This document shows positions 3,001 through 6,000 of a DNA stretch of 11,743 bases, one piece after another (the first letter of the stretch is position 1; every line of letters begins with the position of its first letter). The position numbers were made by a program. Source of the DNA: a virus (Duplodnaviria > Heunggongvirae > Uroviricota > Caudoviricetes). The stretch lies in IMG/VR virus record IMGVR_UViG_2645727555_000019. One strand, given 5' to 3'.

Positions 3001-6000
3001 TTCTATTTTAAGCTTGATAGTTTCATACAAAACAACAGTTGCGCCTGTTTTACATAATTCCCGGCCGTCATACGCACGAGACCAATAACACAACCAGTTC
3101 TCGAGATCTTCTCGAGTATAGGTTTTGCAGGCCAGTCCCTCTGCCATTTCCACGATTTCATCGCCTGGTGCTGTTAACTCATAGCCATTCAACAACAAGA
3201 AGACATAACCAGCCATCATAGCTGTTCGTTTGTTTGCATTAGCAAATGGATGATTCTGAATCAGACTTTCAATCAATACTGATGCCAGTACAAACATGTC
3301 ATTAGTCTGTTCATACCATCGAACCATGCTGGGACGAGACTGAGAAGAACTTAAATTATCAACACTCAGCACACTAACAGGTTCATCTGGTGTTTGAAGC
3401 TCAATTAAAAGGCGATTAATTTCGGTAAGATCATCAAACGAAAGGTAGTGCACTCCTTCAACAATCTCAGCCATAGAGCACAATACCCATCATTACACTT
3501 TTGAAAGTTCTTCCATTGCCTTCTCGTAACGAGAAAAACCGAAATCGAAAGCATTTTTCACCTGCTCACGATGAGTGCAATTTTCATCGATAGCCGGGCG
3601 CGGAGCTGCCACAACGCTTTTATCGCGAGGGGGAATAGTCAATCGCGGGTGTTTTTTTAGTGCGTAGCTCATTGGGTGTACCCTTACTTCTCCGTCCTGT
3701 TCTTTAACAAAAATCAAGTCAATACAAAATTAGTCAGGCTAATGTTGTTAGCATAGCCTAATACCGATCGTATTCACAACCACAGTACGTGAAAAAACCC
3801 GCCGAAGCGGGTTAAGTGCGGGTGCGTTGAGGATGCCTGACACATCAGAGGTGGCGAGGGATTTCTCCCTCGCCTGGTCTCTTACTCCTCAGGTTCGTAA
3901 GCTGTGAAGACAGTGACCTCCGTCTGGCCGGTTCGGATTCGTACCTCGCAGAGGTCTTTCCTCGTTACCAGTGCCGTCACAATGACGGTAATACAGATGA
4001 CGATCAGGGCGACTAACATCGCCTTTTGCTGCTTCATAGCCTGCTTCTCCTTGCCTTTCGGCGCGTAAGAGGCTAACCTACATGTGTCTAGCATGAAATT
4101 GGCCTCAGATTAATGTTAGGCGTCTTGCAGGACGCGTAATGTTAACTGGGGCTTTTCTCTGTCTGCCTTACGGTGGCATGCCCGAGGCAGACAGCCTCAA
4201 GCACCCGCAGCAATTCTACTTAACTCTCGCTTTACCGCAAACCGTTTTTACCCGATATGGGAATTCCCATATCGTAATGAATTCAGTTCCCTAGTCGATC
4301 CATCAAAAACACAACCAGGCAGTAAACGCCCACAACAGCAATAACAGCCAGCGCACCTTCCATTGCCAGTGATATATCATCCGACATATTCCCTCCTTTG
4401 GTGTTAATCCCGGCGAACGTTTTTACCCCCACCGACAAATAACATATACTAAAAAAGTGATAGCCATAGCAACGCCTGTAATTGCAAATGCTTCAGGCCA
4501 GTTCATTGGCGCACCTCCTGCGGCGGTTCTGGTAGCGGCATCCAGTCGGTTACATTGCGGCTCTGTGTTTCGAAAAATTCATCACCATCACGGACTACAT
4601 CAAAAAACTCACCGTCTCGATATTGCGCATAAAGAACGAATGCGCCATCACATAAAATAATTACGTGCTGACCGTCATCCGGCATTCGCTCACTACAGCT
4701 TATCCAACCATCCAGAGTTACCGGATGGTTGGTTGACGTTTCCGAGATTTCCCGAAAATTATTGGTTGACGAACCCTTCTTTTCCCGAAAGTTTCCAGCC
4801 TGAAGCATGGCGGCGCTGTCTGGCGGGGCAGCATATAGCGGCACGTATATTTCCGGTTCCTTATCAGCACCGGGTTGCTCTTCCAGTGAGAATGTCTTTC
4901 CGGTAAATCGATTCATATAAAGCACGGGCTCTGCTTCCAGCGAAGCCTGAGCAACAAGGGCCAGTGCTAAATCCAACTCAATTGCCTCGAGAGAATTTTT
5001 GAATGCTGTCTGTTTTACTGCAAATTTCATCGCCTTTACATTTTCACTAACATGACTGATTAACTGCTCTTTTGTAAAAGTGGTCATCTCATTCTCCTTT
5101 GATGCGAATGCCAGCGACAATTGAAGCCTGATAGCTAATTTACTCACAGTACCGCCTCCTGAAAATTCCCCTGATAGAAAGCCAGCACGCGCTGCATAAC
5201 TTCACTATTCCGGCACTCGCGACAGATTATGTTCAGGCGTCTATCGTAGCGGCGAATTTCTCCGTCTGGTAACTTTCGAATCAATGTCTGGTCAGTTGTT
5301 TTCTCCGGTGTCTTACGCCATACGCGATACACCTGTTCTGATGCAAAAACACCGTATTTACCGGACATGTATAAATCGCCACAAGCCAGTACATCCACAA
5401 GGCAACGTCTGACTGAATGCCAGCCTGCTCCCGTCGCTCTCTCCAGTTGCGATATCGTCATGCGTTCATTTTTGCGTACCAATCCGATAATTCGTGCCTT
5501 CAGTTCTTCCCGCTGTTCGTGTGTAAAAGGTTTCGCCATAAGCGCCTCCGGCAATCACTTTTCCGACACAATACGACCGGATGAATCGACAATCTGTCGA
5601 ACAATATCCCGGTGCTTGTTCAGCTCCCGCAGCGCGGCGCAGACTCGCTCCCACTTCTGGACCTGTTTTTTGGCGCGACGAAGTTCTCGACTGGCAGCAT
5701 GCAGCGATGGAAGCATCACCGAACTGGCAGATTTTTCGGTGAATGATGGAACTTCTCGGATAAACTCATCTGTACTGGCCTTTGCCGTGCTCTCTGATGC
5801 CAACGGAAAACGATTCATTTCATCGCCTGCCGCGCTGTTTTCTGCGTCATGGTGTGATTGCTTATTCTGCGATGATAAGGCGCTCAAATCGCCGTTTTCG
5901 ACATCAGGCATTTTGTAACGGAATTTTCCGTTGCTGATCTCGCGTACCAGGCGTCTCGTTGCTGTTACCACCGCCAACGTGGAAGCAACCTTACGAGTGC

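Follow-up and report, generated by a model that had tools for sequence, protein, structure and literature searches.

Are two very short, hydrophobic open reading frames (ORFs) lying in tandem beside a hok gene real genes, and if so, what might their peptides do? This question was raised by a stretch of 11,743 nucleotides (nt) from the Caudoviricetes virus record IMGVR_UViG_2645727555_000019 of IMG/VR, here called the window, in which a 27-amino-acid (aa) frame (ORF1) and a 34-aa frame (ORF2) follow a gene for a DUF551-domain protein. The original prediction had described them as membrane peptides, toxin-like or exclusion-like, that annotation pipelines would miss. We consider it probable that both frames are real genes for single-helix inner-membrane microproteins of about 30 residues, carried as accessory cargo of the prophage, with ORF1 coupled to the gene before it and ORF2 forming a cassette tied to hok, and that both peptides are non-lethal modulators. 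ORF2 is already annotated and has been published as translated. The existence of two ORF2 types, the ORF2-hok linkage, the cassette, and the coupling of ORF1 to Ea22/DUF551-type genes appear to be new and were not found in the searchable literature.

We read both micro-ORFs on the minus strand of the window sequence, each led by the strong Shine-Dalgarno (SD) motif that had been predicted for it (AGGAGG for ORF1 and AAGGAGG for ORF2; positions are given in Table 1). Each peptide had one hydrophobic stretch, with a best 17-residue Kyte-Doolittle window of 2.34 for ORF1 and 2.95 for ORF2, as compared to 3.24 for Hok, and AlphaFold2 modeled ORF2 as a single helix spanning residues 3-33 with a pLDDT (predicted local distance difference test) of 90.6. 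The hydropathy windows and, for ORF2, the model thus agreed with the predicted single-helix hydrophobic peptides. The window contained four ATG-initiated ORFs of 20-45 codons preceded by an SD-like motif, of which the hydrophobic two were ORF1 and ORF2. When 200 sequences were simulated with a first-order Markov model, the mean number of hydrophobic SD-led ORFs was 0.01 and no simulation reached two, giving a probability of less than 0.005 for two such frames in the window by chance. Since the simulations never gave two, ORF1 and ORF2 are not readily attributed to chance.

The claim that pipelines would overlook these frames held for ORF1, which lacked an annotated feature in every RefSeq record or match row examined, but not for ORF2. 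The Prokaryotic Genome Annotation Pipeline (PGAP) lists ORF2 as the hypothetical protein WP_001278450.1 in Escherichia coli AST198 and in O104:H4 strains, and it is ECs_5710 in O157:H7 Sakai, where the amino acids are identical and the locus is homologous. The exact ORF2 peptide was found on ~1000 contigs, and a HMMER protein search with ORF2 returned near-identical E. coli copies only. In addition, the last 34 residues of XECs145, one of the intergenic ORFs of Sakai with a ribosome profiling (Ribo-seq) signal, are ORF2 (Hücker et al. 2017, PMC5597208). In lysogeny broth (LB), XECs145 had an RNA value of 79.1 reads per kilobase per million mapped reads (RPKM), a ribosome RPKM of 346.1, a ribosome coverage value (RCV) of 4.35 and a coverage of 0.99; in brain heart infusion (BHI), the corresponding values were 121, 150, 1.14 and 0.84, and under cold and osmotic stress there was almost no translation (PMC5597208). 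XECs145 was thus expressed, by both RNA and ribosome footprints, from uninduced cultures of Sakai, a strain other than that of the window, and its product was predicted to be an inner-membrane protein (PMC5597208). The layout in the Sakai prophage Sp6 is the same as in the window: a DUF551 gene, an ORF1 variant, ORF2, a palindrome and hok.

Translation at this level bears on whether ORF2, and perhaps ORF1, could be a membrane-damaging peptide of the type I toxin kind that is held in check by an unrecognised antisense RNA, a reading that we regard as quite unlikely. It would account for small hydrophobic peptides whose neighbour is a genuine type I toxin and whose region contains a further two toxin-antitoxin pairs, and a plus-strand promoter-like site (TTGCCA-16-CATATT, 4363-4390) would yield an RNA antisense to the start and ribosome-binding site of ORF2. 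On the other hand, promoter-like matches occurred at chance level (3 found versus 2.1 expected), and the second ORF2 type described below (type B) has no counterpart of this site. The ORF2 SD is strong and exposed, Rfam gave no match over 4207-4520 (the sok/hok-leader lies downstream of both ORFs), and Pfam, NCBIfam, Rfam and the promoter scan together showed, above chance level, neither an antisense RNA nor a type I toxin family for either ORF. Because ORF2 is highly translated in healthy, exponentially growing Sakai cultures, unlike silenced type I toxins, an acute toxin is disfavoured for ORF2, and the toxin-like character that had been proposed for it is weakened accordingly. Neither peptide looks like a stand-alone killer toxin.

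To see how far ORF1 is conserved, we relied on tblastn and on a degenerate DNA pattern for the first seven codons only. By tblastn, ~60%-identical, 27-aa ORF1-like frames occurred in 92 phage records, mostly Shiga toxin (Stx) phages and other lambdoid phages of E. coli; GenBank also contains a few relatives under the name "hypothetical protein". The pattern retrieved 120 IMG/VR loci and 138 matches across all the loci compared. Among the IMG/VR loci the frame closed at 19-40 codons in 119 and was hydrophobic after residue 7 in 111, while in the full set 137 of 138 peptides were 19-40 aa long, 121 of them exactly 27 aa. An SD-like motif preceded the ORF1 homologue at 117 of the 120 IMG/VR loci, and at 109 its start overlapped the stop of a long upstream ORF (ATGA in 93, TGATG in 16), so the predicted coupling to the upstream gene, apparent in the window from the ATGA overlap and AGGAGG, extends well beyond it.

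The genes upstream are not all alike. They end in at least four unrelated C-termini, including the DUF551 terminus ...PPQEV(R/N)Q, ...RNGLISAEDVLR and ...NDLKNIEQEVNR (L0139 of phage 933W), and DUF551 is present in only some of them; they correspond to the modular Ea22-type proteins known from work on Stx phages (PMC10834534). Judged by these junctions, the ORF1 SD and start move as a unit with the peptide gene. On the 3' side, ORF1 homologues were followed by hok at 41 nt, by ORF2 and then hok, or by no hok, as in VT1-Sakai, where xis and int follow. The position directly upstream of hok that had been noted in the window is therefore not a constant feature of ORF1, although it is one of the ORF2 family, which was always followed by the hok promoter. 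We also considered a DUF551-ORF1 fusion, suggested by 121-aa DUF551 proteins that co-cluster at 90% with ORF1-like peptides, but these proteins lack the peptide and the clustering was an artefact of partial entries.

Selection on ORF1 was measured as the ratio of nonsynonymous to synonymous polymorphism (pN/pS). Over codons 8-27, which are free of the search pattern, it was 0.50 (p=0.017) in the 933W-like clade, with values of ~1 in the other frames, and it fell to 0.26 (p=0.0005) for variants of that clade seen at least twice. The two length variants seen were both in-frame 6-nt deletions. Deep clades differed at most synonymous sites (pS, the synonymous divergence, of 0.66-0.81) and kept the length, the SD and the start/stop overlap. 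These results, along with those for ORF2 below, showed that both reading frames are conserved in homologous regions and under frame-specific selection, as would be expected of the genes originally predicted. It would be highly improbable, in our view, that one or both ORFs lack a function, their frames being open by chance within a conserved recombination linker at a lambdoid mosaic boundary. The ORF1 region does lie at a module junction, its last 11 nt are part of the repeat that flanks the ORF2 cassette, some copies carry stops, and the exact ORF1 peptide was not found in a collection of 15 billion proteins. Against this stand the features kept across the deep clades, the frame-specific synonymous excess, the in-frame indels, the simulation result and, for ORF2, the Ribo-seq signal; for ORF2 chance is already disfavoured.

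ORF1 also had several variants. One, MIWPEAFAITGVAIAIDFLVYVICRWG, carries an Asp in the middle of the helix and occurs in Sakai Sp6 and in 14 IMG/VR copies; in further copies W26 is replaced by a stop or a stop falls at codon 3. Some ORF1 copies may thus be decaying. When one genome from each of 185,579 species was scanned, convincing ORF1 copies came from E. coli and Shigella flexneri only. A Pseudobdellovibrionaceae metagenome-assembled genome contained, on its minus strand, a 65-aa ORF starting MTWPEAFAIVGVAFA..., whose first 15 residues match an IMG/VR ORF1 variant save for residue 2; this likeness may be chance or may mean that the motif reaches beyond enteric prophages.

ORF2 has relatives of a second kind. 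Phages Tritos, Evi, mEp460 and HannyBb gave weak, full-length tblastn matches to ORF2, in each case ~215 nt before hok. Two types could be told apart: type A, the 34-aa, ATG-initiated form of the window, and type B, of 29 aa (MLVLKCALAIAAVMAIYCLAVVLMDRLSD), which starts with GTG behind a GGAGG SD. The types are 48-55% identical and share an invariant Y-C-L..L-M..L C-terminal core written in different codons. The family consensus is YCLxVxLMDRL, with the D and R nearly invariant. A degenerate DNA pattern for this shared C-terminal motif gathered 127 IMG/VR occurrences. In the 5426 complete E. coli genomes, type A was counted in 666 and type B in 1180, and type A with the hok leader in 667. No RefSeq feature corresponded to type B among the matches listed; in HannyBb an antisense ORF is annotated over it. 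A supposed further family upstream of hok (WQFIVLLLF...) proved to be the +1 frame of type B and lacks a start codon.

We counted pN/pS for ORF2 on distinct variants and outside the codons fixed by the search pattern. For type A it was 0.24 in frame versus 1.67 and 1.93 in the other frames, and for type B 0.24 (p=0.0013) versus 0.80 and 1.49. The translation signals were also kept. The SD of type A was unchanged in eight of nine distinct sequences, and the ninth, AGGGAGG, retained the GGAGG core; one type A variant changed ATG to GTG and so kept a start codon. In type B the GTG start and the SD core were invariant, whereas the neighbouring bases varied. Type B was also preceded, ~37 nt before its start, by a promoter-like pair TTGAA(T/G)-17 nt-CATATT with a variable spacer sequence, conserved in four divergent contexts, which points to a promoter of its own, and no terminator-like element was found between type B and the hok start.

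ORF2 and hok were closely linked. In the window the hok mRNA start lay 77 nt beyond the ORF2 end, and the hok leader followed the family at 42 nt (type B) or 76 nt (type A) in 127 of 127 occurrences with enough sequence, in at least six different upstream contexts. A sample of hok leaders drawn regardless of the upstream sequence was used to survey the slot before the hok promoter. This slot held ORF1, ORF1 with ORF2 type A, ORF2 type B, a truncated type B remnant, a 59-aa two-helix ORF, or unrelated sequence; type A was always preceded by the window-type ORF1. Thus hok occurred without ORF2, but ORF2 never occurred without hok among the loci compared, and because the slot may contain other sequence, hok does not need ORF2. 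The two-helix ORF (MKNALQFLFVAFWLF...FMAVMCIEYWR), seen in other IMG/VR prophages, ends 89 nt before the hok start. The truncated remnants keep only the last six codons of type B (MDHLSD) before an intact hok promoter, for example after the upstream sequence ...GGAGTGATTTTATGGATCACCTTTCTGATTGA, which indicates that recombination breakpoints fall within ORF2 and that hok survives without it.

The strict position of ORF2 would also be expected if it mattered only in cis, with transcription or translation upstream of the hok promoter tuning hok/sok and the peptide being a by-product. The fixed distance in all loci, the conserved type B promoter with no terminator before hok, and a Hok that is invariant whatever lies upstream all agree with such a role. 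Selection acts at the amino-acid level, with filtering in the ORF2 frame only, and the C-terminal motif is kept between types A and B by synonymous codon changes; a purely cis role is therefore disfavoured. Moreover, hok promoters of the 933W type function in the same context without ORF2, and we hold this reading to be very unlikely.

The linkage bears equally on the idea that the peptides are superinfection-exclusion or anti-phage membrane proteins of the prophage that block incoming phage DNA. Small membrane proteins such as T4 Imm, P22 SieA and HK97 gp15 act in exclusion, the frames lie in an accessory region of a prophage, and ORF2 is expressed in lysogens. Exclusion would leave unexplained the constant adjacency of ORF2 to hok and the fusion of ORF1 to the tail of an early gene not expressed in lysogens. 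With no match in PADLOC, PHROGs, Pfam or NCBIfam, exclusion or defence is a guess, and on balance an unlikely one. The strict linkage to hok would be the best functional lead for ORF2.

The boundaries of the ORF2 segment suggest how it came to lie there. The ORF1 homologue of 933W terminates in ...TGGAGATAAAAACGGTTTGCGG, and TAAAAACGGTTTGCGG and the hok promoter come directly after it, with no cassette between. The window adds a segment flanked by two copies of an 11-bp direct repeat: 164 bp holding the ORF2 SD, ORF2 and the palindrome lie between the copies, and with one repeat copy the segment amounts to 175 bp. Because 933W has ORF1 and the hok promoter adjacent and the window adds this repeat-flanked segment, ORF2 type A appears to have entered an ORF1-hok arrangement as a 175-bp insertion. 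The repeat occurred three times in the window versus 0.01 expected; the third exact copy (9741-9751, plus strand) lies inside the cI-like XRE repressor gene. The promoter block GTTAAGTAGAAT...GGGTGCTTGAGG was common to all hok loci compared. We placed the hok promoter by reading the sequence and by where the Rfam hok-leader match begins.

The palindrome is centred ~57 bp upstream of the hok start. As RNA it would fold into a hairpin with a minimum free energy of -25.2 kcal/mol (z -2.7), and it was mostly conserved in type A loci and imperfect in one natural variant. It lacks a U-tract, and a role as an intrinsic terminator is therefore not supported. It could be an RNA 3'-end hairpin or a protein-binding site.

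Taken together, these data suggest the following course of events. ORF1 would be the last cistron of the Ea22/DUF551-type gene, and ribosomes ending that gene at TGA would most likely restart on the overlapping ATG, aided by AGGAGG. Since it is coupled to the upstream gene, ORF1 would be made whenever the early operon is expressed, with early lytic transcription and roughly in step with the upstream protein. ORF2 would be a separate cistron with its own SD that arrived as the 175-bp cassette between ORF1 and the hok promoter and is expressed in lysogens in a moron-like manner. Its transcript probably continues into the hok leader, because no convincing terminator lies between them. Most likely, the two peptides would lodge in the inner membrane as modulators that do not kill the cell; the partner or target of ORF2 would probably be the Hok/Sok module, and ORF1 would probably work with the Ea22/DUF551 early function. 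A bolder form of this proposal, which we offer as tentative and rather doubtful, is that the ORF2 family is an overlooked protein partner of hok/sok, acting on Hok as a modulator or buffer or else setting the supply of hok mRNA through its co-transcription, and that ORF1 is the unannotated, co-translated partner of the Ea22/DUF551-type modulators of lysis and lysogeny in Stx phages.

A number of observations weigh against reading the two frames as functional genes tied to their neighbours. For ORF1, the pairwise ratio of nonsynonymous to synonymous divergence (dN/dS) between deep clades was 0.52 in frame 0 versus 0.53 in frame +1, in comparisons that are saturated; decayed copies exist, by premature stop or by Asp within the helix; and the Sakai Ribo-seq study assessed only ORFs of at least 30 aa, which places ORF1 outside its scope (PMC5597208). 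For ORF2, the published XECs145 has 54 codons and a non-ATG start 20 codons upstream of the ORF2 ATG (PMC5597208), and its reads could have their origin in several prophage copies of nearly identical sequence. Redundancy is high among the IMG/VR loci, which are E. coli prophages, so that the 127 of 127 linked occurrences represent perhaps 6-8 independent contexts. The Hok protein is the same in all upstream classes and does not co-vary with ORF2, and hok loci without ORF2, such as that of 933W, work. Lastly, a search at the consensus threshold did not find a promoter for ORF2 type A, and with a palindrome that departs from the canonical terminator, the type A transcript has no clear limits.

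The coordinates of the features are collected in Table 1. The window region matches the chromosome of E. coli AST198 at 100% identity and the O104:H4 outbreak strains at 99%, and a window-like region occurs in ~15% of complete E. coli genomes. The window covers the early-right/nin region of a lambdoid prophage in reverse orientation, with the gene order cI-like, cro-like, cII, replication genes, DUF1627, DUF977, DUF551, the two micro-ORFs and hokD, followed by a Doc-type pair, a RelE/HTH (helix-turn-helix) pair, ORF6N and BRO genes, ninB to ninH, and Q.

Table 1. Positions in the window of the two micro-ORFs, their signals and the adjoining elements.
Feature	Position	Strand	Details
DUF551-domain gene (Ea22-type modular protein)	4503-5087 (PGAP start) or 5147 (GTG, longest ORF)	-	Pfam DUF551 E=1e-20
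SD of ORF1, AGGAGG	4514-4519	-	7 nt upstream; within the last codons (P-Q-E-V) of the DUF551 gene
ATGA overlap, ORF1 start/DUF551 stop	4503-4506	-	ATG 4506-4504, TGA 4505-4503
ORF1, 27 aa, MNWPEAFAITGVAMAITFLVYVICRWG, M(N/T)WPEAF + helix family	4423-4506	-	ATG start
11-bp direct repeat GGGTAAAAACG, upstream copy	4418-4428	-	Includes ORF1 stop; left edge of ORF2 cassette
SD of ORF2, AAGGAGG	4392-4398	-	4 nt upstream of ATG
ORF2, 34 aa, MSDDISLAMEGALAVIAVVGVYCLVVFLMDRLGN, type A of the hok-linked YCLxVxLMDRL family	4283-4387	-	ATG start
Perfect 22-bp palindrome CGATATGGGAATTCCCATATCG	4253-4274	.	Between ORF2 and hok promoter; 11-nt arms, 100% complementary
11-bp direct repeat GGGTAAAAACG, downstream copy	4243-4253	-	Right edge of ORF2 cassette
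Inferred hok promoter	4213-4241	-	-35 TTTGCG 4236-4241, 17-nt spacer, -10 TAGAAT 4213-4218, start near 4206
hok/sok locus	3882-4206	-	Leader, Sok target and mok 4032-4206; hok coding sequence 3882-4037

The hok coding sequence (4037->3882), annotated as hokD, matched Pfam HOK_GEF with E=1e-22, and the Rfam sok/hok-leader model (RF01794) matched 4206->4032 with 116.9 bits. A mok-type leader frame (3882-4094, minus strand) in frame with hok gives a 70-aa, N-terminally extended Hok, and mokW/hokW of 933W are annotated alike. Downstream of hok, at ~2600-3720 and on both strands, lie a 59-aa ORF with a Doc-family toxin and then an HTH and RelE/ParE pair on the opposite strand; three toxin-antitoxin-type modules thus occur within ~2 kb of the nin region. 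A module of C4 antisense RNA, c4-a1b1 target and isrK was present twice on the minus strand, at 385-583 and 1970-2168, with all parts above the Rfam gathering scores, and each copy is upstream of an ORF6N/BRO antirepressor-like gene. These duplicated modules look like P1-type antisense control occurring twice in one prophage.

Sequence searches of Pfam, PHROGs, NCBIfam, PADLOC and PDB gave nothing above noise for ORF1 or ORF2. The PHROGs matches had E values of at least 0.0065 and were to families of unknown function; PADLOC gave no match for ORF1 or type B and, for ORF2, a weak Cmr5 match (E=0.023) that we took as chance. Neither peptide matched the Hok models of Pfam (PF01848) or NCBIfam. 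We rejected common ancestry of ORF1 and ORF2 (hhalign probability 1.9%) and of ORF2 and the Hok helix (0.6%). Searches with the peptide motif, the locus tags and hokW/MokW gave only the Sakai Ribo-seq paper in a searchable literature that leaves most subscription journals outside its coverage.

Among toxin-antitoxin systems hok/sok is a textbook case, and it has also been investigated in connection with persistence and the stability of prophages. Should ORF2 act on it, a component would be missing from the models now used for hok loci on chromosomes and in prophages, and many "two-part" modules of E. coli would be three-gene units. Published work reports that Ea22/DUF551-type genes tilt the choice between lysis and lysogeny (PMC7093339, PMC10834534). 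The ORF1 ribosome-binding site and overlapping start would be lost along with any such gene that is deleted or truncated, and if ORF1 is indeed a partner, the phenotypes of ea22-type deletions could partly be polar effects on the ORF1 peptide. If the peptides have no role beyond membrane decoration, they would be two more prophage microproteins and the result an annotation fix.

Several known systems invite comparison with the two peptides. The report on XECs145 gave a longer frame, noted neither the hok link nor the cassette nor the type B relatives, and assigned no function (PMC5597208). Like the Hok/Gef proteins, ORF1 and ORF2 are short single-helix inner-membrane peptides, by prediction, on prophages; a Hok lies immediately beside them, and ORF2 is always found with one. 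They differ in being unrelated to Hok/Gef in sequence and in lacking a mok-type leader frame, a Sok-like RNA and a fold-back element; in addition, growing cells translate the Sakai copy of ORF2, whereas hok is normally kept from being translated. With type I toxins in general they share a hydrophobic peptide of less than 60 aa, but such toxins are silent in normal growth and the Sakai copy of ORF2 is not.

Termination-reinitiation at ATGA or TGATG is known in translationally coupled overlapping gene pairs. ORF1 shares with these pairs the ATGA overlap and an SD inside the upstream gene, but it is unusual in having only 27 codons and in being joined to several unrelated upstream C-termini. Phage morons are independently expressed extra genes inserted between conserved lambdoid phage genes. 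The ORF2 cassette resembles them in lying between elements that are adjacent in 933W, in being lysogen-expressed (Sakai) and, for type B, in a conserved promoter that would be its own. Unlike a typical moron, type A has no clear promoter or intrinsic terminator that we found, and its cassette is only 175 bp with edges formed by the 11-bp direct repeat. MgtS, AcrZ and MgrB are small, non-lethal, one-helix membrane regulators of E. coli that bind larger membrane proteins, a mode of action like that envisaged for ORF1 and ORF2. Although ORF1 and ORF2 have no sequence similarity to them, are prophage-borne and are limited to Escherichia/Shigella, they have the same size and the same one-helix build.

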